32,177 nucleotides of DNA, from the IMG/VR virus record IMGVR_UViG_3300049139_000086, positions 1 through 32,177 of that record; one strand, given 5' to 3'. This document shows, piece by piece, positions 6,883 to 32,177 of the stretch. Both the position numbers and the translations under genes were made by a program. The notes under the pieces were generated by a model. The model saw only the letters and a list, made by a program, of their open reading frames with translations. It made no database searches and was not told where the DNA came from. The stretch comes from a virus. Its lineage: Duplodnaviria; Caudoviricetes. Each line of letters opens with the position of its first letter. Positions within the stretch are counted from its first letter, which is position 1.

Positions 6883-6893
6883 GTATATACACC

Positions 6894-6952
6894 AAAGGCC
6901 GTCCGGCCCAACCCCTTCAAAACGTAGAAGGGGCGGAGCGCAGACGGCCTTT
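6894..6952. terminator. Terminator-like long hairpin between the capsid gene and the 137-aa gene
   Basis: AAAGGCCGTC/GACGGCCTTT 10-bp inverted repeat enclosing CCCCTTC/GAAGGGG. Confidence 0.45.
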
Positions 6953-6976
6953 CAGGGTCGTAGGGTATAGAGAGAT

Positions 6977-8746: not shown

Positions 8747-8803
8747 TAGATAGGGCGTGCTAGCATCCACAGCACTTAGCCCATCAAGACAGGGCGAAGG
8801 CAC

Positions 8804-8866
8804 GAAGAGCCCCCGTAGGAGCCAGCCGTAACGGCGCATGGTGACCGCAAGGGGGCTCTTCTTTTT
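8804..8866. terminator. 11-bp perfect inverted repeat with internal hairpin; U-tract on the plus strand
   Basis: GAAGAGCCCCC (8804-8814) and GGGGGCTCTTC (8851-8861) followed by TTTTT, enclosing GCCGTAACGGC. Confidence 0.45.
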
Positions 8867-20810: not shown

Positions 20811-22653
20811 GACTTACATCCGTCTGAGCTAGGTAATCCTCGATGCGGACGACGGCCTGATGGCCGCGCCTGTAACGAGGGACGTACTTGGAATTGGCAT
20901 GTGCGTTCGCCCGCGCCGTGCGCTGTGCGACAACCTCGCGCGCCTTGATCTCCGCAAACCACAAAGCCATGGGCAAGTCCTGAACGAGGTCTTTGCCTTT
21001 GGCGCCAGGGCGCCAGGTAATGAGCTGCTCCACGAGGGCTTTCGTTCCCTCGGAATTGTGCGCGCTCGGGAGCTCGATCATCCGTTCTGAAAAGAGCGGG
21101 GCGAGGGAAGCGACACCGAAATCAGGGTCCAATTTGTTGTTACCGGAGTAGTGCTCGACCATGGCAACGCCCCTGTTAGCGAGGTACTGCCTAATGTGCT
21201 CGTCCCTCGTCAAGAACAACTGGAAAGCGTTTTTCTCGACCACCCACGTAGACGGCATATACTTGTCGGTCCACTGCGTGATGATGTCGCGAATCGCCTG
21301 CGGGCTAGGCGCCCGCATTCTGTTCGCTTCGAGGACGTAGCGTTTAAGATTCTGCGGATCGACCGCGTAAGCGATCGTCGCTGTCTCCCCCGCCATAGCG
21401 GGGTCCATCGAGCAGACCACGTATAGGCCCTGCATGCCGTTATCACGGTGGTATTCGTTAGCGGCATTCATAGGGCCGATGGTTCGATTGCCGTTGATGC
21501 AAGCCCGAATATCCTTCGGGTCAAAGATCGCAGAAGAGCTAACACTCTGCTGCATATACACCATCGACCAGATTTTGGGGTCGAGCAGCGAACGACGCTT
21601 AACGAGCTTAGGGCCGGACCACCGCGGATAGAGCCCGTCCTTGTCGGGCTCGTCCTTACTGTTCGGCCAGCGCTGATCAGAGCGCGGCCAGAGAGTCACC
21701 CAGTCGAACGAGGAATCGGCGAATTCAAGAACGGCCGGCATGCCCAAATAAGTCCAAGGCGGGTCAACCTCGTCCGGATAGTTGTCCGGGTTGCGCAGCT
21801 CCGAATACAAGTCGATCGGGTCAACGCGAGTGCCAACGACAATAAGCTGCCCAGTATCACCCAGGCGAGTAATAACTTCCTGCGTCAGCCAACGACGCTG
21901 ACTCTCGTGCTGATGCGCGTTGCTCAAAAGCACCGCATCGTCAAGGAAGATCTTGGTCGAGCGGACTCCGTAAATCTGGCCGCCAATGCCAACACATTGG
22001 ACGGTCGGATCTTTCTCTTCAGGGTCACGAATGCTCGAAGGGAAATAGATCCTGTCGGCCTGCCAAATGGCATCCTCGGAGTCGAACCCCTCGGCCGGCC
22101 CAAAGTCCTGCTGCAACCTCGAATACTTGTGATGCGTAAGTCTCTGCTTCACAGCCCAGAGCATTTGCTTAGCAAGCTCTTGGGTCTTACTGACAAGAAC
22201 GATACGCTCATTAGGATTCGTGCAAATGAGATACGTAACGTAGTCAATCGTCAGCGTGACGGTCTTCGCATGGTCGGGCGGCACATTGATCAGCACATGC
22301 TGATCGGAACGACGCTCGTAGGTCATGCTCGGGTGCAGCCAGCGAGGCGCCCTGCCTTCAACGACGTCGATCATGTTGAGCTGGTGATCGAAGGTGCGCG
22401 ATCCCAGGTATTCCTGTCGGAACTCCTGGAAATCCAGCCTCGGCATGTCAACGCCGTTCGTGCGCTTGGCACGAACCAGGTCGATCATGTCCCTGAACGC
22501 CGGATCGTTCTTGCGCCACGCCTCGTAGGTGCGGGGATGCCGGCCAACGGACGACATCGCCCAATCGACGGTCTTGCCACCGCGGATCGCGGTCGCTACC
22601 AGCTCTTTAGCCTCAGCAATGCTAGGGCGGTTCTGTGCTTGATTTCTAGCCAA
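20800..22653 (-). CDS. terL: Terminase large subunit with N-terminal HTH-like extension
   Basis: Walker A variant INVPPDHAKT, Walker B IFLDD, C-motif VVGTR, and nuclease motifs SMDPA, VVEKNAFQ and QDLPMALW. The start is uncertain: TTG 22653 is preferred, but the ORF is open to 22743. Confidence 0.93.
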   Translation of the reverse strand: MARNQAQNRPSIAEAKELVATAIRGGKTVDWAMSSVGRHPRTYEAWRKNDPAFRDMIDLVRAKRTNGVDMPRLDFQEFRQEYLGSRTFDHQLNMIDVVEGRAPRWLHPSMTYERRSDQHVLINVPPDHAKTVTLTIDYVTYLICTNPNERIVLVSKTQELAKQMLWAVKQRLTHHKYSRLQQDFGPAEGFDSEDAIWQADRIYFPSSIRDPEEKDPTVQCVGIGGQIYGVRSTKIFLDDAVLLSNAHQHESQRRWLTQEVITRLGDTGQLIVVGTRVDPIDLYSELRNPDNYPDEVDPPWTYLGMPAVLEFADSSFDWVTLWPRSDQRWPNSKDEPDKDGLYPRWSGPKLVKRRSLLDPKIWSMVYMQQSVSSSAIFDPKDIRACINGNRTIGPMNAANEYHRDNGMQGLYVVCSMDPAMAGETATIAYAVDPQNLKRYVLEANRMRAPSPQAIRDIITQWTDKYMPSTWVVEKNAFQLFLTRDEHIRQYLANRGVAMVEHYSGNNKLDPDFGVASLAPLFSERMIELPSAHNSEGTKALVEQLITWRPGAKGKDLVQDLPMALWFAEIKAREVVAQRTARANAHANSKYVPRYRRGHQAVVRIEDYLAQTDVSLAS

Positions 22654-22746
22654 AAGTATGTGTATGCTCGCAAACGCCACCGCGGCTAGCGCTGCGGTTC
22701 GTTCGCGGTGGCCGCCTCCTTGGAGGGAAGGCGTGGTCAACACGAG

Positions 22747-22786
22747 AAGGGCCGGCGCCCGTGCAAGTCGCCGGCCCTTTGTGTTT
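22747..22786 (+). terminator. Intrinsic terminator-like hairpin upstream of terL
   Basis: AAGGGCCGGCG/CGCCGGCCCTT 11-bp inverted repeat followed by TGTGTTT on the plus strand. Confidence 0.5.
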
Positions 22787-22883
22787 GGTTGTGCACCTGT
22801 AGACGGGGAACAAAGCTCAACGAGGAGCAGAGCTCAAGGGCGGGAAGGTGTGGACCCTAGGGGACCCGCCTACAGGGCGTCTA

Positions 22884-23039
22884 TCAGTCCGACTCGCCCG
22901 ACTCCTCGGGCTCGTCGAAAGCGCTACTGATCGGCGCCGGCCTGGGCTGGGCGGCAGCCACTTCGCGGAACGGCCAGAACACCATCAGGAAGGTTTCCCA
23001 GCTCGAACCCCGTTCGGAGTCTCGCCGCATGGCGATCAT
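22884..23039 (-). CDS. Small hypothetical protein, 51 aa
   Basis: ATG 23039 is in an ATGA overlap with the upstream ORF. Confidence 0.4.
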   Translation of the reverse strand: MIAMRRDSERGSSWETFLMVFWPFREVAAAQPRPAPISSAFDEPEESGESD

Positions 23040-23251
23040 TGCTTGGCTCCCAGGGCCTTCACGCAGTTCACGCAGCCGCCGTACGCGGGCAGCCAGGTCT
23101 CTTTGTAGCAACCGAAGACGGTCGCCGTTACAGTCCTCTCCCCGCATACAGCCGTGGCGTACATGTGCGCCGTCAGCCCAGGGCGATCCAAGATCACATG
23201 CGGACCGTTCACGCCGGACCAGCCGGTCACATAGCGGCTCTCGCCGGCCAT
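23036..23251 (-). CDS. Hypothetical protein, 71 aa, possible Zn-binding (H..., CG, CxxC)
   Basis: Starts 2 nt after the upstream stop; contains Cys/His residues and C-V-N-C. Confidence 0.6.
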   Translation of the reverse strand: MAGESRYVTGWSGVNGPHVILDRPGLTAHMYATAVCGERTVTATVFGCYKETWLPAYGGCVNCVKALGAKQ

Positions 23252-23253
23252 GG

Positions 23254-23571
23254 CTACGGGACTAGATAGGAGACGTTGACGGTGGGCCGTCGCTGTTGCT
23301 CGGCGGGAGCCGCCTCTAGCGCCAGGCGCCGGACAGTCTCTATCGCCTTCGGTGCCGCGTCGTCGTACGTCGCGGCAGGGCGAGGCTCAGTTACCCCGTA
23401 CTCGATAGCCAACTCTAGGTAGCCGTCGAACCCCAACGACTCGGGCGAGATCGTCAGCTCATCCAGGCAGAACCCGCGACGCTTCATATCCGCCTTGTAG
23501 GCGGCCAGCTCCGCCTCTCGGGCTTCCTCGGGATCTACCGCCTCGGCGGGGTCGTAGATTTCCATGCTCAT
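23254..23571 (-). CDS. Acidic hypothetical protein, 105 aa; first gene of the leftward arm
   Basis: Protein-like composition; divergent from the GntR gene. Confidence 0.6.
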   Translation of the reverse strand: MSMEIYDPAEAVDPEEAREAELAAYKADMKRRGFCLDELTISPESLGFDGYLELAIEYGVTEPRPAATYDDAAPKAIETVRRLALEAAPAEQQRRPTVNVSYLVP

Positions 23572-23670
23572 ACCATACGGAACATGTACCGTGCAGTCTA
23601 GGGCGATCCTATGACCGTCCGTTACCGTCCGGTCTATGTGTGCAGGTCACACCCGTTTTAGGGTCCGCCC

Positions 23671-23943
23671 ATGACGATCGATGAGCCGGCCTGGACAGAC
23701 GACGACTGGGACCCCACGATCTACCGGTACACGCAGATAGCCGATTGGGTAGAGGAGCGCATCCGAAACGGCGTCTGGCCTGCGAGAACGGTCCTGTCAG
23801 AGATGGCGTTGCAGGCATATTTCGGCGTTGGACGAGGCACGATCCGCCGCGCCATGGAGATCCTGCGAGAGCGCAAGATGATCAGCACGCTGCCCGGCAA
23901 GGGCAGCGCCGTGATCTGGGCAAACGGTGATCTGCTGGACTGA
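23671..23943 (+). CDS. Stand-alone GntR-family winged-HTH regulator, probably leaderless
   Basis: Pattern Y.QIAD..E.RI..G.W.....L.SE..L...FGV.R.TIRRA..IL.E...I.T.PGKGS. A -10-like TAGGGT (23659-23664) ends 6 nt before the ATG and there is no SD. Confidence 0.88.
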   Translation: MTIDEPAWTDDDWDPTIYRYTQIADWVEERIRNGVWPARTVLSEMALQAYFGVGRGTIRRAMEILRERKMISTLPGKGSAVIWANGDLLD

Positions 23944-23977
23944 CGCATATATCGCCGCAAAAGGCAAGATTCCGGAC

Positions 23978-24006
23978 TAGGCACAAACCGGGATAAGTGC
24001 TAGCGT
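23978..24006 (+). promoter_or_regulatory. Putative sigma70/HrdB-type promoter
   Basis: TAGGCA-N17-TAGCGT with an extended -10 TG; predicted start ~24012-24013. Confidence 0.5.
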
Positions 24007-24267
24007 GGCCACTGCTCACGCAAAGGTGCTGCGGTCGCTCCCGCTCCCCTTGCAAACAACCCCCAAGGCCGTCGCGGGCCAATCACGCGGCGTGTCTTGA
24101 TTCGCAAGACCCGATCGACTCGCCTTGCCGCCTTCACCCTCGGCGCTCGGCGTGGTCGTGAAGGTCTTGTATGCGGCAGATGTCACGCTGCCGTGCGGGG
24201 AGAGCCGTGGTAGGGGTCTAGGGGGTCTTGGCCGCGGTTCTCCCCCTCCATCAATGGAGGAGGGATC

Positions 24268-24471
24268 ATGCTAGAGGTAATCGAAATCCCGTGCGCCTGC
24301 GGTCAGCACCCGCTGACATTTCTCGCTATGCCCGCGACGCCGGCCATCCAAACTCCCTACATCCCGCCGTCACCGGCTCTGCGCCGGATCTACGAGCAAG
24401 GGCTGAAGGGTGCGGCTCACATCGCCCTACACAGGCAGTTCACTCACGGCGCCCTCGGGGGCGCGTCGTGA
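24268..24471 (+). CDS. Hypothetical protein, 67 aa (CxCxxH)
   Basis: Strong GGAGGAGG SD; stop overlaps the next GTG. Confidence 0.6.
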   Translation: MLEVIEIPCACGQHPLTFLAMPATPAIQTPYIPPSPALRRIYEQGLKGAAHIALHRQFTHGALGGAS

Positions 24472-24695
24472 GCCTCGAAGACTCGAACGTCAACGCGGTG
24501 TTACTCAACGGAACCGTAGTCATCCTCTCCAGGAGAGATAACCCCGACCGTGCCAGTATCGAGCTGCTGCCATCCCAATGGGAGGCGCTGCGCGACGCAA
24601 TCAAGGCCGGCGAGCTCGACCGTCTTCCCCGGAAGGGTCGTGACATCGGCTGGCCTGACGGCCCGGACGCCGACGCGCTAAGGCGCGGCATATGA
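24468..24695 (+). CDS. DUF397-like protein, 75 aa
   Basis: GTGA coupling. VVILSRRDNPDRASIELLPSQWEALRDAIKAGELD resembles the DUF397 C-terminal pattern (V.VRDSK.P.GP.L.F...W.AF...VK.GEFD). Confidence 0.55.
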   Translation: MSLEDSNVNAVLLNGTVVILSRRDNPDRASIELLPSQWEALRDAIKAGELDRLPRKGRDIGWPDGPDADALRRGI

Positions 24696-24798
24696 GCAGA
24701 CTGCGAGGCGACTGGAGAGCGAGCCTCTGGGCTCACTATCCGCGACGTTTAATACCCGTCCCGCGACAGTGTCCCAAGCCCGACGAAGCAGGAGACCC

Positions 24799-24981
24799 GT
24801 GTCACCCGAAGTCAGTAGCGCTCTCAGCAACCTTATCGCCGCTTTGAAAGCGACCGATGACGAGAGCCTAGGTAAAGTCGTCATCTGCGACTTCGACGCT
24901 AAGAGGCATATGGGTGGCGTCATCTCGTCGGAGACGAGATCCGCCATTGAATCGCTCATGCTGCGGATGAACAAGTACTAG
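24799..24981 (+). CDS. Hypothetical protein, 60 aa
   Basis: AGGAG SD before GTG 24799; a hairpin follows the stop. Confidence 0.5.
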   Translation: MSPEVSSALSNLIAALKATDDESLGKVVICDFDAKRHMGGVISSETRSAIESLMLRMNKY

Positions 24982-24983
24982 AC

Positions 24984-25263
24984 GTCTCGCGCTAGTACGC
25001 GAGACAGGGCAACGCCCCGGAGTGAAGGGCGTTGCCAGAGAAGGGGCGAACTCGCGTTCGCCAGACGAGGAGAAGGTAAGGCAAGCCATCGGCCCGGAGG
25101 GCCTTGCCTTCTCCTTATTCAACAGGCTCCGTCTTACGGCGGAGCCTTATCTATCTAAGGAGGGGCGACGGGCTTTAGAGCCCCTCTCCCCCATTGCTAT
25201 AGAGGCAGCCTCACGGGCTGCCGTTCGTTCGGGGGGAAGGCTTCGGGCGTTCCGCCTTCCCCC
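24984..25263 (+). repeat. Cluster of eight consecutive inverted repeats
   Basis: Hairpins at 24984-25005, 25008-25036, 25045-25062, 25069-25114, 25124-25147, 25159-25189, 25204-25222 and 25232-25263. Confidence 0.75.
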
Positions 25264-25913
25264 AGTTCGAAAAACCCTCTCATATATAGTTGTCTGAACC
25301 GTACAGTGTACGGTGAGCTAAAAGTGGTAACGATTTGATATACGACCTTCGACCTGCGGCTCTCTCAAAAGATTTTTCACCTGGAGCCCCAACTTTATAC
25401 ACAGATTCGGGAGTGGATAGTAGGAGGAGGGGCGGTCGCGGGTTTAAAAGGGGTGGGTCAGCCGGCGAGCCACCGAAGGTGACAGAGCGGTCGCTCTGCG
25501 CTGTTTGCGCAGGTCAGAGCGTCAACGACGAGCCGGCTCCTGGTGAGCCGACATGATGGACTATGAACGCAAAGTCTCACTGTATGTGCAGGTCAGAGCC
25601 CTTATCATGCCATGATCAGCCCATAATGTGAGCAACCCTCACCTTTTGTCGCCTATTGATGGCGACACTCCATACCAAGCGGTTGCTTGGTTGCTCTGGC
25701 CCCCCATATTGCCCCCCATATTGACGACTGTTGATCATGGTCTGTTGTGCGCCCACAGGCGCCGTAAGACTGCCGCGAGAACCCTTCCGCTAGCGCTACA
25801 GGGACCTCTTTGCCAACGAGCGAGAGGGAGCTGTGAGAGCCGGCCGTGAGCCGGCCTAGTAGGGCTGGGAGCGCAGCTCACCAGCCATTTCCAAGGTTTC
25901 TGAAAATTGGGGG

Positions 25914-25944
25914 TTGACAAGCATGGGGACATGTCCCCATGCTT
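25914..25944 (+). promoter_or_regulatory. Early promoter overlapped by a 26-bp perfect palindrome (operator)
   Basis: TTGACA (25914-25919)-N18-CATGCT; AAGCATGGGGACATGTCCCCATGCTT (25919-25944) is its own reverse complement. Confidence 0.75.
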
Positions 25945-26000
25945 TGGGTATACGAAATAGCGTGGTAGTTGGCTCTACCACCTGGAGAGAGGTAGGCGCC

Positions 26001-26192
26001 ATGTGCACTAAGTCAGAGATGGACAAGAACACCCCTATCCAGTACACCACTAAGGATCGTTCGCGCACTGCCTCATACGACATGGTCCGTAACACCGTAA
26101 CGGTATTTGAGGGATGCGCTCTAGTTGCCAACGTCGAGGTCCCCTGCGGCTTCCCGTCCTGGCGAGTGTGGGAAATAATCAAGAGTGCCTAA
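26001..26192 (+). CDS. Early hypothetical protein, ~63 aa
   Basis: GGAGAGAGG SD before ATG 26001; first ORF after the promoter. Confidence 0.6.
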   Translation: MCTKSEMDKNTPIQYTTKDRSRTASYDMVRNTVTVFEGCALVANVEVPCGFPSWRVWEIIKSA

Positions 26193-26227
26193 TCAGAGAT
26201 CAGACAAACGAACGAAAGGGGCTGGAA

Positions 26228-26386
26228 ATGGATGCTCGGCACATGGTGACTATCACTCACAGGGGAGACAAGGCGCACGCTGATTGCGCCTGTTATTGGG
26301 GAACGGATCTTATGGAGATCTCCCAGCTTCACGGCACGATCATGGGTCACTACATCAAAATTGGATACGTCCGCGACGCTGCCTGA
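26228..26386 (+). CDS. Early hypothetical protein, 52 aa (CxC, His-rich)
   Basis: GAAAGGG SD before ATG 26228; the stop begins an intergenic hairpin. Confidence 0.65.
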   Translation: MDARHMVTITHRGDKAHADCACYWGTDLMEISQLHGTIMGHYIKIGYVRDAA

Positions 26387-26455
26387 TCACTTGCCAAGGG
26401 GCAAGCGAGCAACGCCCGCCGGCTCCTTAGTGAGATCAGACAAAGGAGGCTCGCT

Positions 26456-26644
26456 ATGAAGATCACCATCCACGTCACTCTCGACTTAGACGCGCAAGCA
26501 CGGGACGCATGGGCGACTGAGTTCGGTTGCGACAACACCGCCGATGCGGTCCGCAGTGACGTCAAGGCGTACATGCGCAACCAGATTCACACCGACAGTT
26601 TCAAAGAGGCTGGGGTTCCTGGAGTCTCAGTTTCGGTCCGCTAG
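26456..26644 (+). CDS. Early hypothetical protein, 62 aa
   Basis: AAGGAGG SD; flanked by family hairpins. Confidence 0.75.
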   Translation: MKITIHVTLDLDAQARDAWATEFGCDNTADAVRSDVKAYMRNQIHTDSFKEAGVPGVSVSVR

Positions 26645-26734
26645 TGATCTTGTTCTAGGGCAACCAGCGCGGGGGCGCTGGGCGGCCCTGGTGTGAGATC
26701 AATCGCTCTGATCTCCAGCCCAAAGGGAGTTCCC

Positions 26735-26917
26735 ATGCAAGCTCGTAACCCGCTGTTCAACGTGCTTACGCCTATCGAGGCGATGTTTCTGGAGTCGCGC
26801 TTGCGGAGCGCGTACAGCCATGCGGGTGCCGCTCTGTTCACCACTAACCGATATGACGCGTATCGCGTCCGTAGCGAACTGTTGGACATCATCGATGACC
26901 TGTCACCCGCTTCGTAG
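26735..26917 (+). CDS. Early hypothetical protein, 60 aa
   Basis: AAGGGAG SD before ATG 26735; flanked by family hairpins. Confidence 0.7.
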   Translation: MQARNPLFNVLTPIEAMFLESRLRSAYSHAGAALFTTNRYDAYRVRSELLDIIDDLSPAS

Positions 26918-27032
26918 TGACTTTGCCAGGTGACATGCGCGCTTTGGGGAGCGCGCAGGCTGCCTAGTGAAGCCACCAAACGGTTTCATTCCTCGCCTGT
27001 GGCTAGACAGGCACGGTGGAAGGCTCACGCAA

Positions 27033-27269
27033 ATGGTTTCGTTCACGAACGGTACGGCCGAGATGGTTCACGCCATGGTTGAGGCGGACAAGGCCGACAT
27101 GGAGAGTTTCCCCATGGTCCTCAACCATGGGGACATGGAAGCCCTGATTTGGGTCATGTCCACCACTGTGGGTTTCGTCTCCCTGGAGGACATCCCCGAG
27201 GATATCCGCGAGCGTGCGGAAAGTCTGTTCACGGGCATCGCCGAAACGCTGGGTATTGAGGGGATCTAG
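27033..27269 (+). CDS. Early acidic hypothetical protein, 78 aa
   Basis: GGAAGG-CTCACGCAA-ATG start context. Confidence 0.7.
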   Translation: MVSFTNGTAEMVHAMVEADKADMESFPMVLNHGDMEALIWVMSTTVGFVSLEDIPEDIRERAESLFTGIAETLGIEGI

Positions 27270-27383
27270 AAACGCAATGAGGACGCCCGTTCGGGGACGG
27301 GCATCCAATTGTGTGGCTAGCTCGGCTGCACTGCCTCACTCGTGGCTAGACGAGTGAGAATCGCTCACGCAAAGGACACGACC

Positions 27384-27689
27384 ATGGCTGTTTTCGCTAC
27401 GTGGCACGGTGGTTCCGGCTACAGCATCGGCACCATTGATGATGACCTGGAGTCGTTCCCTTCCATCGCTCTTGCCAGGGAGACGTTCCGCGAGCGCGCC
27501 AACACGTCGGGCGCCGCGTACCTCAACACGTACTACGTCAACCGTGAGAACGAATCGGTTCGTTTCCCTGCCGTTGACGAGACGACCACGATGGACGTGT
27601 TTCTGTACGACCCTCGCACGGGTGGCGACTCTCCGGACTTCCGTCTTGTCCTCGGGCCGCGCGGTGGCGTCAAGCGTGAGAACTACTGA
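27384..27689 (+). CDS. Early hypothetical protein, 101 aa (WHGGSGYS...GPRGGV.RE)
   Basis: AAAGGA SD within the motif; ATG 27384; the C-terminal GPRGGV motif is seen in small phage proteins. Confidence 0.8.
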   Translation: MAVFATWHGGSGYSIGTIDDDLESFPSIALARETFRERANTSGAAYLNTYYVNRENESVRFPAVDETTTMDVFLYDPRTGGDSPDFRLVLGPRGGVKRENY

Positions 27690-27797
27690 CCCGTCATAGC
27701 CCATGATGCGCGCGGGGGCGCGCGTTGTGGAGATTGACCGGTCAGGGACGCTCGTGGCTAGGCGAGCGTCGCCAGGCAATCTAGAAAGGCTCACGCA

Positions 27798-27962
27798 ATG
27801 GATGGATACGAGGGAACCCCACTCGCCGAACTTCCGCACATCGATTACCCGCACGAGCCAGGCCGGATGTACGGCTGCTCAACGTGCGAGGCGGAATGCT
27901 TCTGTACCGGCCGGCCTGGCGACACAGAATGCATCTTCTGTGCTTCGCTGGCTGCCGTCTGA
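27798..27962 (+). CDS. Cys/His-rich 54-aa putative Zn-binding protein
   Basis: Translated by hand: MDGYEGTPLAELPHIDYPHEPGRMYGCSTCEAECFCTGRPGDTECIFCASLAAV. GAAAGG SD; the stop begins a family hairpin. Confidence 0.75.
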   Translation: MDGYEGTPLAELPHIDYPHEPGRMYGCSTCEAECFCTGRPGDTECIFCASLAAV

Positions 27963-28053
27963 CTTTGTCATAGGGCAAGCGCGCGGGGGCGCGCCGGCCC
28001 AGTAATGAGGTCAGTCGCTCGACTTCAGATGCTCACGCAGAAAGGTTCTCTCA

Positions 28054-28404
28054 ATGGCTCTGTCCAAGCCTCACAAGCTGTCGGACGGCAACACCATGCG
28101 CGTTCGTACGCGCCGCACTATCGCAGGCACGTATTTCGAGGAGGTTCACAGCCTCAAGGATCGGCCACATCAGCATTCTCTCTGGCTTCTGGGTACCTCT
28201 ATGTTCCTGGTCATGGCGAACACTAGTGAACCCCAGAGCATCAGTAACCCGGACTACAGCTATGCCAGAGATAACAAGCACGGCGCGGAAGTGGCCATGC
28301 GGTTCTTCGTGGATGGCGCGGAATCGTGCATCGAGGAGGCTCGCAAGGAAGGGCTCCCCACGATCTCTATGTATCGGATGGACTGGCAGGAACTCTCAGC
28401 CTGA
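28054..28404 (+). CDS. Early hypothetical protein, 116 aa
   Basis: GAAAGG SD after the motif; the stop begins a family hairpin. Confidence 0.75.
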   Translation: MALSKPHKLSDGNTMRVRTRRTIAGTYFEEVHSLKDRPHQHSLWLLGTSMFLVMANTSEPQSISNPDYSYARDNKHGAEVAMRFFVDGAESCIEEARKEGLPTISMYRMDWQELSA

Positions 28405-28483
28405 TCGTTGCATCAATGGCCAGTCTTTGGGGAGCCTGGCCAGGCAATGAAGTGATCAGTCAACACCACGAGAGGAAACCCGC

Positions 28484-28744
28484 ATGCCCAAGCAAATCGA
28501 GCTCACCGTGTCCGAAACGGTCGTCTACTCGTTCAAGATTGACGTGAACGACCTGTTTGAATGGGAAGACATGCCGCTAGTGATCAACCCTGACAGCGTC
28601 GAGGCAATCGAGGAATGGCTATCGGAGGACGTTGACCGCCAGGTCATCGCCGACCAGTGCACAGACGAGAATTTCGACTACTGCGAAGATCGGTCTCTCG
28701 ATAGCGCGACAGCCGTCGCCGTTGAGGCATCCGTAGCCGCCTGA
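28484..28744 (+). CDS. Very acidic early protein, 86 aa
   Basis: GAGGA SD; D/E-rich; flanked by near-identical hairpins. Confidence 0.8.
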   Translation: MPKQIELTVSETVVYSFKIDVNDLFEWEDMPLVINPDSVEAIEEWLSEDVDRQVIADQCTDENFDYCEDRSLDSATAVAVEASVAA

Positions 28745-28813
28745 TCGTTGCATCATGGCCCATCCGGGGGATGGGCCGGCAATGGAACGATCAGGCGAGA
28801 GAAAGGACTACGG

Positions 28814-28999
28814 TTGGCAACCGCCGACGAAGTGAACGGGCGCATGAACGCGCTCAACATGAACGAGGTTGAGGTTCATTTTCTCCTCGGCATCATCGGC
28901 AACCTGGCACCGGATGTACTCAATAAGGCGTTAGATGTGCTAGAGAGCTCTATAACCAAGCGAGACACCATCACCCGAGAGGAAACCAGCAATGGCTAG
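28814..28999 (+). CDS. Early hypothetical protein, 61 aa
   Basis: GAAAGGA SD before TTG 28814; overlaps the Lsr2 start. Confidence 0.65.
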   Translation: MATADEVNGRMNALNMNEVEVHFLLGIIGNLAPDVLNKALDVLESSITKRDTITREETSNG

Positions 29000-29342
29000 G
29001 CGCATCGTAGAGACGCTGATCGATGACACAGACGGCACCATTGCGTCCGAAACCGTCGTGTTCGCGATCGACGGCAGCTCTTACCAGATCGATCTCAGCG
29101 ACCCCAACGCGACGAAGATTCGTGACGCGCTGGCTCCGTTCGTGGCTGTCGCGCGGACGGTTCACGGCTCGGCTACTCGCAGGGGTCGCGGTCGCACGGG
29201 TGCCCCCCATGCGCGGCTGAGCCGCGAGAAGAGTGCCGAGATTCGGCAGTGGGCCAAGAAAAACAAGATCACTGTCAGCGAGCGTGGCCGCATAGCGGCC
29301 CACGTGGTCAAGCAGTACGAAGCGGCTAATCAGGAGGGATGA
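28992..29342 (+). CDS. lsr2: Lsr2-family nucleoid-associated / DNA-bridging protein
   Basis: N-domain LIDDTDG...ETVVFAIDG.SY.IDLS..NA.KIRDALAPFV..AR and C-domain IRQWAK.N.I.VSERGRI...V..QYEAA (RGR AT-hook). Confidence 0.95.
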   Translation: MARRIVETLIDDTDGTIASETVVFAIDGSSYQIDLSDPNATKIRDALAPFVAVARTVHGSATRRGRGRTGAPHARLSREKSAEIRQWAKKNKITVSERGRIAAHVVKQYEAANQEG

Positions 29343-29346
29343 TCTC

Positions 29347-29478
29347 GTGAGTCTGATGGGCAATCACGGTTACGACCCGTCCACTGATCCCGGAGAGATC
29401 ATGTCGAGCTACTACGACGCTGAGTACTTCGCTTGGACCGTTGATGAGGCGACTCGCCTCATCAACGACAACGACTGA
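29347..29478 (+). CDS. Small acidic protein, 43 aa
   Basis: AGGAGG SD before GTG 29347; the TGA begins a family hairpin. Translated by hand. Confidence 0.6.
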   Translation: MSLMGNHGYDPSTDPGEIMSSYYDAEYFAWTVDEATRLINDND

Positions 29479-29650
29479 TCGTTGCACCATGACTCATCCC
29501 TCCTATCGGGGGCGTGCACGGTCGCAGACCGTGAATGCCAGTGATTGATCACCTAGTGACGATCACCGGAGGGGATGAGTCTGCAATGGAGTGATCAGCG
29601 CTCGATCGCCCCACACACAGCAAACTCAGCTCACGCAAAGGAATCCCCCC

Positions 29651-30268
29651 ATGAACTATGACCCGTCCGGGCCGGGGAAACATCGGCTGCCGCCGATGCC
29701 GCCACCGCCACCACTGCCACCGGTCGCGATGCCTCGCGTCGAGGTGGCTCCTGTGAGCCAGATCCCTCCCCCTCCCCCCGAGAGCGGATTGCGCATGCTG
29801 GTGCTGGGCGTGGCTCTCGGCGCGATGGCCGCCGGCGTGCTGGGCTTCGGCATCGGACTCAAGGCCGGCGATGGCAGCGCGTCAACCGCGTCTGCCTCGA
29901 TCGTCTCGGCTTCTCCGACTCCCAGGTTCACGCCTATCCCTGCCCCCTCGCCGACGCCTTCGGCTTCGTCCACCAGGCAGCCGACCAAGGCTGATGTTCG
30001 CCTGGAGGTTGAGGAGACCCGTCGTCAGTGCTACGAGGTGGCGGGCTGCAACGTGTCTTACACCTTGGATGTCATCGTCAAGGACAAAGCCCTGTTCGAC
30101 CCTGACACCACGTACGCGATTACCTACCGCGTCAAGGGCGCACCGTCGCCCATCCTCGGGACTATCACTCTGGTAGATGGCCGTACTCCGATCGTGGATG
30201 AGTCCACGATGGGTGTACGGGTCGGTGGCAAGCTCACCGCGATCGTGACGAAGTTGCAGGCCAGGTGA
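29651..30268 (+). CDS. Membrane-anchored protein: Pro-rich N-terminus, TM helix, S/P linker, C-x5-C extracytoplasmic domain
   Basis: AAAGGA SD before ATG 29651; TM segment LVLGVALGAMAAGVLGFGIGL; QCYEVAGCNVSY resembles the actinobacterial QCFGSAGCNV.Y motif. Confidence 0.8.
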   Translation: MNYDPSGPGKHRLPPMPPPPPLPPVAMPRVEVAPVSQIPPPPPESGLRMLVLGVALGAMAAGVLGFGIGLKAGDGSASTASASIVSASPTPRFTPIPAPSPTPSASSTRQPTKADVRLEVEETRRQCYEVAGCNVSYTLDVIVKDKALFDPDTTYAITYRVKGAPSPILGTITLVDGRTPIVDESTMGVRVGGKLTAIVTKLQAR

Positions 30269-30363
30269 TGCCGGACTGGGCTTGGATGATCGGGCTAGGC
30301 GTCGGTGCAGCCCTGGTGTTCATCGCCGGCATCGTCGTCCTGGTCCTGGTGCTCACGCGCTGA
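30268..30363 (+). CDS. 31-aa single-TM peptide (MPDWAWMIGLGVGAALVFIAGIVVLVLVLTR)
   Basis: TGATG coupling; the stop begins a family hairpin. Confidence 0.6.
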   Translation: MPDWAWMIGLGVGAALVFIAGIVVLVLVLTR

Positions 30364-30428
30364 CTTGTCCATCCGTGGCCACACCTCCGGAGGTGTGGCC
30401 ATCATGGAACAGTTAGACGAGAGGAAGG

Positions 30429-30656
30429 ATGACCATGGCAAGCGCCATAGCAACCGTCAGCTCTGCCGCTGACGATCCGCAAGATTGCCACTGGTGGGAT
30501 GGCGACCGCTACGAGTGCGACTCTAAGTCAACCTACATCGTGGAAACGCCAGACACGGCCGAGGCCGGCGAGGCGGGCAAGCGATGGTTTGTCTGTGACA
30601 AGCACGTGCATACGGCGCTCTTCGAGGCGAGAACATACCTCTTCACCGGTCGGTGA
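30429..30656 (+). CDS. Hypothetical protein, 75 aa, possible Zn finger (C...C...CxxH)
   Basis: GAGGAAGG SD; flanked by hairpins. Confidence 0.7.
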   Translation: MTMASAIATVSSAADDPQDCHWWDGDRYECDSKSTYIVETPDTAEAGEAGKRWFVCDKHVHTALFEARTYLFTGR

Positions 30657-30773
30657 TAGCTGCGTCCTGGCGCTCCCGTAACAGGGAGCGCCTTTGGCGC
30701 GATGAACCTAGATGCGGGCTCGCTCCCCGTGTCACAACCGAATACAAACGCTCACGCAAAGGGGGGACGGGCT

Positions 30774-30962
30774 ATGCCCTTCCTTGAAATTCTGCTGTGC
30801 CTGGTCGCAGTCCAAGAGGTCGTCTTGGCTGTCCTGGCGATCCTCTACCTTCGTCGCGAGAAGCGCGACCGCGAACACACCGCTCATCTCGCCTGGAGTG
30901 CTGGACGCCTGTCGGCTCTGGAGAAGGCTGTCGCTGACCTCAAAGCCGAGATCGCCCTCTGA
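30774..30962 (+). CDS. Small membrane protein with coiled-coil tail, 62 aa
   Basis: Motif plus AAGGGGGG SD before ATG 30774; N-terminal hydrophobic helix. Confidence 0.7.
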   Translation: MPFLEILLCLVAVQEVVLAVLAILYLRREKRDREHTAHLAWSAGRLSALEKAVADLKAEIAL

Positions 30963-31114
30963 TGGACGGGCAAGAGGAACACACACGCATCCTGTTCTGG
31001 GAACGGTCCCTGTGCATGGGCCGGCCGTGTCGCATGTGCGAACAGGAAATGTTCTCCTGGCACGACATCAAGGGCATGACCTGGGAGCTCTGCCAGAACT
31101 GCGACATCGCATGA
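30962..31114 (+). CDS. 50-aa Zn-ribbon-like protein (CRMC...CQNC)
   Basis: Translated by hand; TGATG and ATGA coupling on both sides. Confidence 0.65.
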   Translation: MDGQEEHTRILFWERSLCMGRPCRMCEQEMFSWHDIKGMTWELCQNCDIA

Positions 31115-31320
31115 GCCGGCCACCGGCCAGCGCCCTTATCACGGTCGCGGTGATGGTCGTGATTGTGGTCATGGTCGCCGTGCCTCTAGCCATATCGGCC
31201 GCCGAGCTGCCCCTGTGGCTAGACCTTCTAGCCAGGTGGGCTTTCTGCCTCCGCTTTGGCGTCGAGTGTGGCCATGCACTGATCAATGCCGCGGATCGCG
31301 GCCAGCAAGGAAAGCGGTAG
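31111..31320 (+). CDS. Small membrane protein, 69 aa
   Basis: ATGA coupling; hydrophobic ALITVAVMVVIVVMVAVPLAI segment. Confidence 0.6.
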   Translation: MSRPPASALITVAVMVVIVVMVAVPLAISAAELPLWLDLLARWAFCLRFGVECGHALINAADRGQQGKR

Positions 31321-31330
31321 GGGGAGACGC

Positions 31331-31579
31331 ATGGGAACGGACAGCCACCAGACGATCACACCGGCACAGCAACGAGGCATCGACCGCTTCGGCGAGGTCA
31401 TCGCGGAGTACGCGCGGATGAAGGGGGTAGATGGGGATGCCCTCCAGTTGGGCGCCCCCGACCTGTACGCGGGTCTGATCGCCGATTCCCTACACTGGGC
31501 CAACCGGGAAGGCTTTGACGCCATCCTTGCCATGGGCGAGGCTTACCGCCTCGCTGAGGAAGAACGCGCCGGCGAGTGA
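31331..31579 (+). CDS. Hypothetical helical protein, 82 aa
   Basis: GGGGAG SD before ATG 31331; contains LIADSLHWA...GFD. Confidence 0.7.
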   Translation: MGTDSHQTITPAQQRGIDRFGEVIAEYARMKGVDGDALQLGAPDLYAGLIADSLHWANREGFDAILAMGEAYRLAEEERAGE

Positions 31580-31669
31580 TCATGCGCTCTCATCATCTGG
31601 GAACTGGCGAGCCTGGTCCTGGGTGGTGAAAGCGTGTGATCGGTCTCAATGCATCGGTTAGGAGGGGGC

Positions 31670-31882
31670 ATGGATAATGATCTTGTTACTCAGGCTGAGA
31701 TAGCCCAGCGGTATGAAGTGAACAAGCGGGCCGTTGGCCGCTGGATTCAGAAAAAGGGTTGGCCTAGGACGTATTATGTAGAACGCTCTGGCCATACTCG
31801 TAAGGCGTACAAGTGGGAAGACGTTCAGTCGTTCTGTCGCCTGCATGGCCTGCCTAAGAGGATAGTCTCTGACCAGGTGTAG
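31670..31882 (+). CDS. HTH DNA-binding protein (excisionase/AlpA/MerR-like wHTH)
   Basis: AGGAGG SD; pattern LVTQAEIAQRYEVNKRAVGRWIQKKGWP...Y.WEDV..F. Confidence 0.75.
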   Translation: MDNDLVTQAEIAQRYEVNKRAVGRWIQKKGWPRTYYVERSGHTRKAYKWEDVQSFCRLHGLPKRIVSDQV

Positions 31883-31986
31883 CGCTCACACCTGCCGTAG
31901 TGTTTTGCGAATCGCTCACGCGTGAGGATCTTCCGATTCTCCCATAGTGAGCGCTTGGAACAGCCGCTCACGCAAAGGTTTCATTC

Positions 31987-32177
31987 ATGGGTTGCAGGAA
32001 ATTCAAGGGTGAGGTTTTTTTTGATGACCTCACCGGGGAGACGCATCTCCCCGAGGAATTGGAAGAGCTCGTTTTTGCCTTTGATGGCCAGGCTTTGGCC
32101 ATTCACCTGGACGACGACAATGCCGCCGCGTTCCGCGCGGCCATGGCGCCTTTCGTTGAGGCCGCTCGGCCTACGAG
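31987..32177 (+). CDS. lsr2: Second, divergent Lsr2-like protein (N-terminal dimerisation domain), truncated by the window edge
   Basis: Translated by hand: MGCRKFKGEVFFDDLTGETHLPEELEELVFAFDGQALAIHLDDDNAAAFRAAMAPFVEAARPT...; motif plus AAAGG SD upstream. Confidence 0.75.
   Translation, partial: MGCRKFKGEVFFDDLTGETHLPEELEELVFAFDGQALAIHLDDDNAAAFRAAMAPFVEAARPT

Follow-up and report, generated by a model that had tools for sequence, protein, structure and literature searches.

Stop-anchored hairpins in an array of small viral genes

What are the long hairpins that begin at one stop codon after another in an array of small viral genes, and what might they do there? The array lies on the plus strand from 26001 to 32177 of IMG/VR record IMGVR_UViG_3300049139_000086, a 32,177-nt stretch of DNA that we refer to in its entirety as the window. 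It comprises 21 small open reading frames (ORFs), the last cut by the window end, which were delimited from an ORF listing with profile matches and whose products are mostly unrecognised. By protein sequence, the window is part of an actinobacterial podovirus akin to the Streptomyces cluster BF phages. We propose that the hairpins are putative T7-type processing sites at which host RNase III would cut one long early transcript, an account that we consider somewhat probable.

Fourteen hairpins (H1–H14; thirteen clear and one weak) start at −4 to +3 nt relative to a stop codon's first base. The original prediction had counted about 12, and the hairpins and subfamilies that it located were all confirmed. 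Subfamily A includes H1 (26383–26439; stop codon 26384–26386, 22 bp, z −3.5, alignment A1), H2 (26645–26701), H3 (26917–26976) and H6 (27959–28014). Subfamily B includes H7 (28401–28459; z −2.6, alignment A2), H8 (28738–28797; z −7.9) and, by its stem, H10 (29475–29598); H11 (30360–30417), which has a cUCCGg loop, is B-like. H4 (27266–27320), with an AA/GG loop near its base, belongs to subfamily C, and H5 (27686–27745), with a 4×4 internal loop, to subfamily D. The remaining hairpins are H9 (29340–29401), a weak or decayed and doubtful element after the lsr2 gene (z +0.1), H12 (30652–30708), H13 (31578–31641; 26 bp, z −7.0) and H14 (31881–31955), which is built on a 9-bp base.

With hand-trimmed ends, which inflate z, 12 of the 14 hairpins have z ≤ −3, the exceptions being H7 and H9. 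An unbiased test in which a 72-nt window was placed at every stop codon gave z < −3 at 6 of 20 array stops and at 0 of 21 late-gene stops, with 2% of 150 random windows below this value as a control. The plus strand folds better in 11 of the 14 hairpins and carries 43 G–U pairs against 22 on the minus strand, which bears out the earlier claim of plus-strand G–U richness. A search of the array region against Rfam returned no match at gathering score, the best hit (E 0.25) being to a microRNA model.

The claim that a hairpin closes each unit holds at 14 stop codons and fails at 6 of the 20 ORF ends (four start–stop overlaps, one 10-nt gap and the first gene); a unit therefore comprises one to four genes. 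H1, H8 and H11 end 11–16 nt before the following start codon (16 nt at H8, 11 nt at H11), gaps that are too short for a promoter behind those hairpins. The predicted size of 54–60 nt captures a narrow distribution around 59 nt, outside which lie H10 (124 nt) and H14 (75 nt), both with branched tops. The G-rich loop, described previously as GGGG-containing and part of a common plan, is characteristic of the window's genome and not of the wider hairpin family. At 26189–26202, past the first ORF, a 14-nt remnant resembles the two basal arms of a hairpin, as if the interior had been deleted. Strong hairpins also occur on the minus strand at 6890–6960 (after the major head protein gene) and 8800–8860 (upstream of the 8018–8554 gene), and these are not stop-anchored.

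Structure, covariation and size

The hairpins are RNA structures of the coding strand, about two helical turns long. The sense strand is the more stable in 27 of 31 hairpins from the close clade and in 43 of 46 from distant relatives, G–U pairs number 98 in sense and 34 in antisense in the close clade (168 and 54 in the distant set), and cUNCGg loops occur 15 times in sense and once in antisense, all counts that are biased toward this result because both sets were chosen on the sense strand. Four subfamilies (A–D) recur across the window and its close relatives G001, G002 and G003, often behind unrelated genes. In subfamily A, two-sided changes affect 16 of 24 pairs, a U–G/G–U tandem is invariant and no slid register comes close; none of 500 shuffles scores as high, a figure that is not a probability since the sequences are related. 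Two-sided changes affect 6 of 17 pairs in subfamily B, 9 of 21 in C and 12 of 20 in D, in agreement with the earlier statement that pairing is kept as sequences diverge. Within soil sequencing run X3, H5 shows paired double changes at 27703/27728 and 27706/27725 (read by hand), single changes at 27692, 27702 and 27707 that retain or gain a pair, and one at 27745 that breaks the end pair; its apical changes involve insertions or deletions and were left out of scoring.

Thirty-one single-stem hairpins measure 59.3 ± 3.6 nt and contain 22.7 ± 2.3 bp and 27.6 ± 1.8 rungs, with unpaired rungs that spread from 4 to 20 and peak at 10–15. The 46 distant hairpins have a median of 28.5 rungs. Branched tops are tolerated, as in H10 and in locus L082 (17510–17617). 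The hairpins share shape, not sequence.

Distribution across the phage family

The stop-anchored hairpin layout is family-wide and covarying. It is found in the close relatives G001, G002, G003 and G315 and in the annotated cluster BF phages Immanuel3, WRightOn and FlowerPower. Among 19 distant relatives, the early gene ends that leave a gap of at least 45 nt number 179, and 61 of them, spread over 17 of the 19 loci, carry a long hairpin, against 0 of 109 late gene ends; an overlapping set of 22 loci under the equal gap filter gave 0 of 51 late ends. Genes in the relatives, and in the bacterial chromosome used for comparison below, were called by a crude script, and these counts are approximate. 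Pattern scans of metagenomes and genomes for family B returned duplicates only (L090 = L003, L091 = L087), each of which was counted once. The arrays of G001, G002, G003 and G315 terminate in compact stems of 8–13 bp followed by U-containing runs, most clearly in G003; at least four U in the following 8 nt are found in 0 of the 46 distant array hairpins. In the early regions of loci L046 and L057, an identical or near-identical linker, consisting of a hairpin plus a Shine–Dalgarno (SD) sequence, occurs twice within one array, which suggests recent duplication or gene conversion.

Putative RNase III processing of an early transcript

In the mechanism that we propose, host RNA polymerase would make a single transcript from the promoter predicted at 25914, and RNase III would divide this long early transcript, much as in T7, into segments that each carry one to four genes, cutting at or close to the irregular zone that lies 10–15 rungs above the base of each hairpin. 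A one-sided cut would leave a protective 3′ stem on the upstream segment; once released, the 3′ arm would in many cases fold with adjoining downstream sequence into a 5′ hairpin on the following segment. Linkers drawn from few sequence families and reused at many positions would offer short homologies for ordinary recombination; recombination at the linkers would thus be their by-product, not a dedicated system. The T7-like processing put forward in the original prediction appears likely on indirect grounds: the hairpins favour one strand, covary, span two turns and resemble Actino-pnp, and a single promoter lies upstream.

In E. coli, two helical turns is the typical span of an RNase III substrate, and an internal loop can confine cutting to a single strand, which yields protective 3′ hairpins (PMC1540722). 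With 22.7 bp and 27.6 rungs on the sense strand, the hairpins have this size. An RNase III site would be expected to have its irregularity flanked by some 11 bp on either side; unpaired rungs here are commonest at 10–15 yet scattered from 4 to 20. Most T7 transcripts contain RNase III sites (PMC3867540), and the S. coelicolor enzyme prefers G–C duplexes and cuts both sides of a 4/4 internal loop that lies within the rpsO–pnp hairpin (PMC10126417). A match to RNase III (TIGR02191) exceeds the cut-off in G008, the carrier of an integrated relative, although the window's own host may differ. In common with the T7 early sites of the R1.1 type (PMC1540722, PMC3867540), the window's hairpins lie between small early genes, extend over about two turns and contain internal loops, and transcription is presumably by host polymerase. 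The window differs in its actinobacterial host, in its 13–14 sites from at least four sequence subfamilies, in the base at the stop codon, and in the addition of alternative downstream pairing and of gene swapping at the linkers; its sites are also predictions. Host-takeover RNA processing sites of a similar kind are known in SPO1/SP82.

Actino-pnp (Rfam RF01688) is a hairpin at the rpsO–pnp position in three actinomycete genomes, and from its position and loop we infer that it is the hairpin cut by S. coelicolor RNase III. It measures 59–61 nt and 28 rungs in two of the genomes and has an enlarged top, like that of H10, in the third. Length, rung count, an irregular zone near rungs 14–16 and tolerance of an enlarged top are shared with the window hairpins, among which H5 has the nearest plan. 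In contrast, no sequence match exists between them, and Actino-pnp is a single-copy host autoregulatory element that is not stop-anchored.

Gene exchange at the linkers

Four soil DNA runs (X1–X4), of which X1 may be the source sample, contain relatives of the window, and comparison of their assembled contigs shows genes being exchanged among soil strain variants around hairpin and motif linkers that stay in place. Among 21 of the 24 loose ends between 26370 and 28030, 16 fall in linkers or coincide with a start or stop codon, although these represent 10 places and are not independent, and breakpoints at linkers are partly expected by construction, because conserved elements anchor the alignments. 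Of the other five, three fall within ORF 26735, at the point from which a diverged homologue aligns, and two come from a single short match, probably an unrelated one. Across the window and the soil contigs, the first base of H2 is the end point of three different genes; downstream of the motif at 27363 there are likewise three different genes, and downstream of H1, of H2 and of the motif at 27789 there are two apiece. The entire 27033 unit is missing from one X1 contig, where the joint falls between two hairpins that carry GGCUAG loops (one side is 27 letters and weak); joints that show 80% likeness and have short sides may be artefactual. Runs X3 and X4 contain a diverged H3 allele ahead of a near-identical downstream gene. 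The homologue of ORF 26735 is found two genes later in G001, and DNA-level matches of the window array to G002 and G003 lie mostly at hairpins and motifs. ORF 31111 is lost in a variant where no hairpin exists.

The hairpins also serve as fixed sockets for gene exchange, and this exchange looks homologous, at common linkers, rather than site-specific at the hairpin. The suggestion that the hairpins are recombination boundaries is therefore upheld as regards the swaps at linkers, and needs revision as regards its kind; genes are lost away from hairpins as well, as with ORF 31111. T4-type PeSLs, which are promoter–terminator modules, are likewise repeated units that run from a stop codon to the next SD sequence and at which ORFans are gained, lost and replaced (PMC2839356). 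Gene gain, loss and replacement at modules is seen in the window too. However, each PeSL holds a sigma-70 promoter and a terminator stem, whereas the window has one head promoter, long interrupted stems and no per-unit promoter visible to an insensitive scan, with gaps of 11–16 nt at three hairpins. The array most likely works like T7 early processing combined with PeSL shuffling.

A second layer of signals in the linkers

Besides the long hairpins, the linkers contain a short motif and small hairpins. The 13-mer motif GCTCACGCA lies on the plus strand at 27023–27035, with further copies at 24014, 27363, 27789, 28031, 29629, 30750, 31914 and 31966; eight matches at up to two mismatches compare with 1.18 expected. 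In the window, G001 and G002, GCTCACGC stands about 1–20 nt before start codons, on either side of the SD sequence, and it is hardly present in G003, G315 and Immanuel3, which keep long hairpins. The GGCUAG 10-mer alone is marginal (8 copies against 3.8 expected), and three copies form the loops of short intergenic hairpins identified by folding at 26995–27012 (the left end of the unit absent from one X1 contig), 27335–27358 and 27747–27770. The repeated unit of the original prediction, which combined the stop hairpin with a GGCUAG hairpin and the 13-mer, is accordingly sustained by the 13-mer and the three loops and not by the 10-mer alone. Within the array, 13 short hairpins with a GCUC or GGCUAG loop lie in sense (8 of them intergenic) and 3 in antisense; late genes have 0.9 per kb.

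Several of the short hairpins arise when the 3′ arm of a long hairpin pairs downstream. The 3′ arm of H2 may re-pair at 26695–26715 around an AUCGCUC loop, H6 and H10 have alternative downstream pairings with GCUC loops at 28006–28027 and 29591–29609, and H12 is followed by a short hairpin at 30711–30733 with a CUCGCUC loop. H14, whose branched top contains a motif copy, has alternative partners for both arms. In an energy test against shuffles, 13 hairpins out of 34, among them 7 of the window's 13, re-pair their 3′ arm downstream at p < 0.05; the alternative pairing covers the next initiation region at H1 and the motif at H14.

The GCUC-loop hairpin together with the GCUCACGC motif beside the ribosome-binding site is probably a separate layer, restricted to a sub-clade, and a candidate site for a translation regulator. 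The motif was rejected as the −10 box of a phage sigma factor, since it can sit one base before a start codon. It may bear some likeness to lambda boxA. The SAS/ESAS repeats that cluster K phages carry and the stoperators of cluster A are also short, asymmetric repeats in one orientation beside the starts of non-structural genes (PMC3203893); the window motif differs from them in sequence, in its position on either side of the SD sequence and in its partnership with GCUC-loop RNA hairpins, RNA pairing being absent from the ESAS repeats as described in that source. Elsewhere in the window, at 23671–24075, a GntR-family gene is followed by a promoter-like sequence with a GCTCACGCA motif at the likely start site and, just downstream, by a UCGCUC-loop hairpin; locus L001 has the motif at the matching place (1624).

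A more ambitious model, which we regard as distinctly tentative and rather improbable, would make each linker a two-state RNA adaptor. In one state it would be a stop-based RNase III site gated by the terminating ribosome; in the other, reached when the stem is opened or cut, the 3′ arm would flip into a 5′ hairpin that displays the GCUC loop, which with GCUCACGC at the ribosome-binding site would form a two-part regulator site. Any ORF placed between such adaptors would gain processing, protection and shut-off, giving a cassette system across the actinophage family that requires neither promoters nor an integrase.

Weighing the alternatives

Several observations weigh against RNase III processing. 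A covariance model of subfamily A finds its own members and H5 (E 0.41) and misses subfamilies B and C, the cluster BF hairpins and Actino-pnp, so that the common structural plan proposed earlier stands as a shape and not as a single sequence model. A cut-site sequence common to the hairpins was not found, and none was gained from the parts of PMC4681348 and PMC8388888 available. GC-rich stems flank some internal loops and would be disfavoured by the proximal-box rules from E. coli and Aquifex (PMC3074117); the S. coelicolor preference is for G–C (PMC10126417). The lower 3′ arm of H8 is absent from variants in X2 and X3, and H6 from one X3 variant that has the same preceding gene. Alternative pairing showed no excess in a looser test based on counts (24 of 34 against 23.4 expected). 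In 400 kb of the G008 chromosome, strong single-stem hairpins are present at 17 of 147 gene ends, and 4 of the 147 have a hairpin of at least 20 bp starting within 10 nt of the stop codon. Cutting of the pnp hairpin shortens message life in S. coelicolor (PMC10126417), and "separately stabilised" mRNAs, the other half of the earlier processing claim, are therefore not assured. None of the listed sequencing runs with relatives is an RNA run.

The most serious competing account, which we view as possible but not probable, treats the hairpins as terminators that lack U-tracts and are partly read through, as pause sites or as passive obstacles to 3′ exonucleases; they would grade early expression and stabilise upstream messages with no specific cut. 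Their position directly behind stop codons fits, and the tolerated loss of the lower stem at H8 is in keeping with it. The leaders of cluster BF phages contain a box found upstream of actinomycete 16S rRNA, which we presume may be an antitermination signal and which, if so, would help an array with terminators. The U-tract that follows the stem of an intrinsic (L-shaped) terminator is missing from 14 of 14 window hairpins, which have 0–3 U in the 8 nt past the stem, and from 46 of 46 distant ones, as the original prediction had stated, but its conclusion that they are not ordinary terminators is weak for this phylum. The stable GC stem of a U-lacking (I-shaped) actinobacterial 3′ end is present in the window hairpins, and structured 3′ ends in S. 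clavuligerus number 353 without a U-tract against 182 that are U-rich, the U-lacking majority class having lower read-through (PMC8269248). Against termination, 13–14 successive stops would have to lie behind the one visible promoter, three of them with gaps of 11–16 nt, and the arrays finish in compact stems of a different type. Nor does a terminator need a size kept close to two turns, internal loops that are conserved or a tolerance of branched tops.

Less likely again, the linkers could be kept mainly as recombination sockets resembling T4 PeSLs or lambdoid boundaries, with RNA folding secondary. The joining of different genes at H1, H2 and the motifs at 27363 and 27789, the loss of the 27033 unit at a joint between two GGCUAG hairpins, the displaced ORF 26735 homologue and the matches to G002 and G003 at hairpins and motifs would all follow, yet compensatory change erases sequence identity and so opposes homologous recombination, sense-strand G–U pairs and UNCG loops point to RNA, ORF 31111 is missing where no hairpin exists, and the alignment anchoring and possible artefacts noted above affect the breakpoints themselves. 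A reading that dispenses with RNase III cutting, in which the hairpins act as switches operated by ribosomes or bind an RNA-binding protein of phage or host, is quite unlikely. Under it, a ribosome at the stop codon would open the base and the 3′ arm, on refolding, would change translation of the next gene. A stop codon in or at the basal helix, recurring GCUC or GGCUAG loops, and alternative pairing that beats shuffles in 7 of 13 window hairpins, covering the initiation region at H1 and the motif at H14, would suit such a switch, but 21 of 34 hairpins lack significant alternative pairing, the motif is essentially absent from G003, G315 and Immanuel3 despite their long hairpins, and profile searches of the window proteins gave no candidate protein. 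The integron attC analogy, under which the hairpins would be single-stranded DNA sites of a cassette array lacking an integrase, is extremely improbable. A left end at the stop codon, a pair of helical boxes and a top that varies recall attC sites, which as stop-proximal imperfect palindromes between small genes also form clusters (CALINs) in phages, one with an actinobacterial host (PMC9892861). However, the left R box (on the plan RYYYAAC ... GTTRRRY) occurs in 0 of 35 hairpins and paired AAC/GTT near the ends in 1 of 35, and internal loops, counted in RNA folds, are two-sided in 86 cases and one-sided in 20, unlike the single extrahelical bases on one strand that mark attC sites; attC is excluded because R boxes are absent and loops are two-sided. 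The integron integrase (TIGR02249) exceeds the cut-off in none of three records (G001, G003 and G008), which is weak on its own since CALINs need none. A box C/D or TIGR-like reading was also rejected, since CUGA pairs Watson–Crick with UCAG.

Genome context and likely host

The first 22.7 kb of the window encode, on the minus strand, a podovirus head and tail module with a major head protein, SU10 adaptor, portal and large terminase. The terminase is 43–45% identical to those of the Streptomyces cluster BF phages (Beephvirinae) and 67–83% identical to those of four uncultured contigs. A relative with 71% terminase identity (L091) lies inside a bacterial chromosome labelled Herbidospora cretacea (G008:C2 286210–302265), and a related terminase is present in 3 of 401 genomes of that family. 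Because its terminase relatives are of these kinds, the host is likely an actinomycete and perhaps a member of the Streptosporangiaceae. Both L091 and L102 (G315:C1) reside in bacterial chromosome contigs, though the family is regarded as virulent; no integrase was recognised among the scanned proteins, which are a subset of the chromosomal relative's region. A related terminase in G164 lies on a 2.3-kb contig with no array sequence.

Upstream of the array, a predicted sigma-70-type promoter (TTGACA, 18 nt, CATGCT) occupies 25914–25943 on the plus strand, and TTGACA with a similar −10 element is found at the equivalent place in G001, G002 and G003. A consensus promoter scan of 22500–32177 found no promoter, an insensitive result in that it missed the head promoter at 25914 too. 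A perfect 24-bp palindrome (25920–25943) spans the spacer and −10 element and is a candidate operator; G003 has a different 20-bp palindrome at the equivalent position. A G-rich stretch at 25400–25465 resembles the annotated right end of Immanuel3 and recurs at the equivalent place in G001–G003 and G315, so that a genome terminus just upstream of the array promoter is probable. Beyond its array, the complete relative G001 encodes a sigma-like factor, an exonuclease, a helicase and a primase; from this layout, the array would comprise early genes.

Early leaders of cultured BF phages contain the box TTGAGAACTC (L081, minus strand, near 44931 and 45333; L088, near 10849 and 11473; L089, near 12066; L087, near 8511). 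The same box occurs about 105 nt upstream of 16S rRNA in 4 of 4 rRNA leader fragments of G008; G003 has a degenerate copy, and the window's leader showed none. The box might mimic an rRNA signal for antitermination or processing.

Host-takeover and anti-defence cargo, as originally suggested, was not borne out. The recognisable members of the array are a complete Lsr2 gene (28992–29342), a helix-turn-helix (HTH) protein gene (31670–31882) and a gene with an Lsr2 dimerisation domain that runs from 31987 to the window end at 32177 and whose G001 homologue differs in its C-terminal part, all on the plus strand; PADLOC matches were weak HTH hits or Lsr2 cross-matches. A blastn search of the array region against cultured phages gave no match, and related-locus searches with two array proteins gave none with one and G001 only with the other.

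Implications

RNase III processing is itself an old principle. In the open-licence literature we found no description of such hairpins in actinophages, and the available excerpt of PMC11536984, on a BF phage, makes no mention of a terminator, repeat or motif. If our proposal is true, T7-style punctuation of early messages would be a family-wide trait of actinobacterial podoviruses, whose hosts have the 5′ exonuclease RNase J and an RNase III with preferences unlike those of the E. coli enzyme. With cultured BF phages and existing Streptomyces rnc mutants, the reasons for early-message cutting and the features that actinomycete RNase III recognises would then be testable on dozens of natural substrates. 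RNA-processing signals would also be linked to modular gene exchange, hitherto described for the promoter–terminator modules of the PeSL type.

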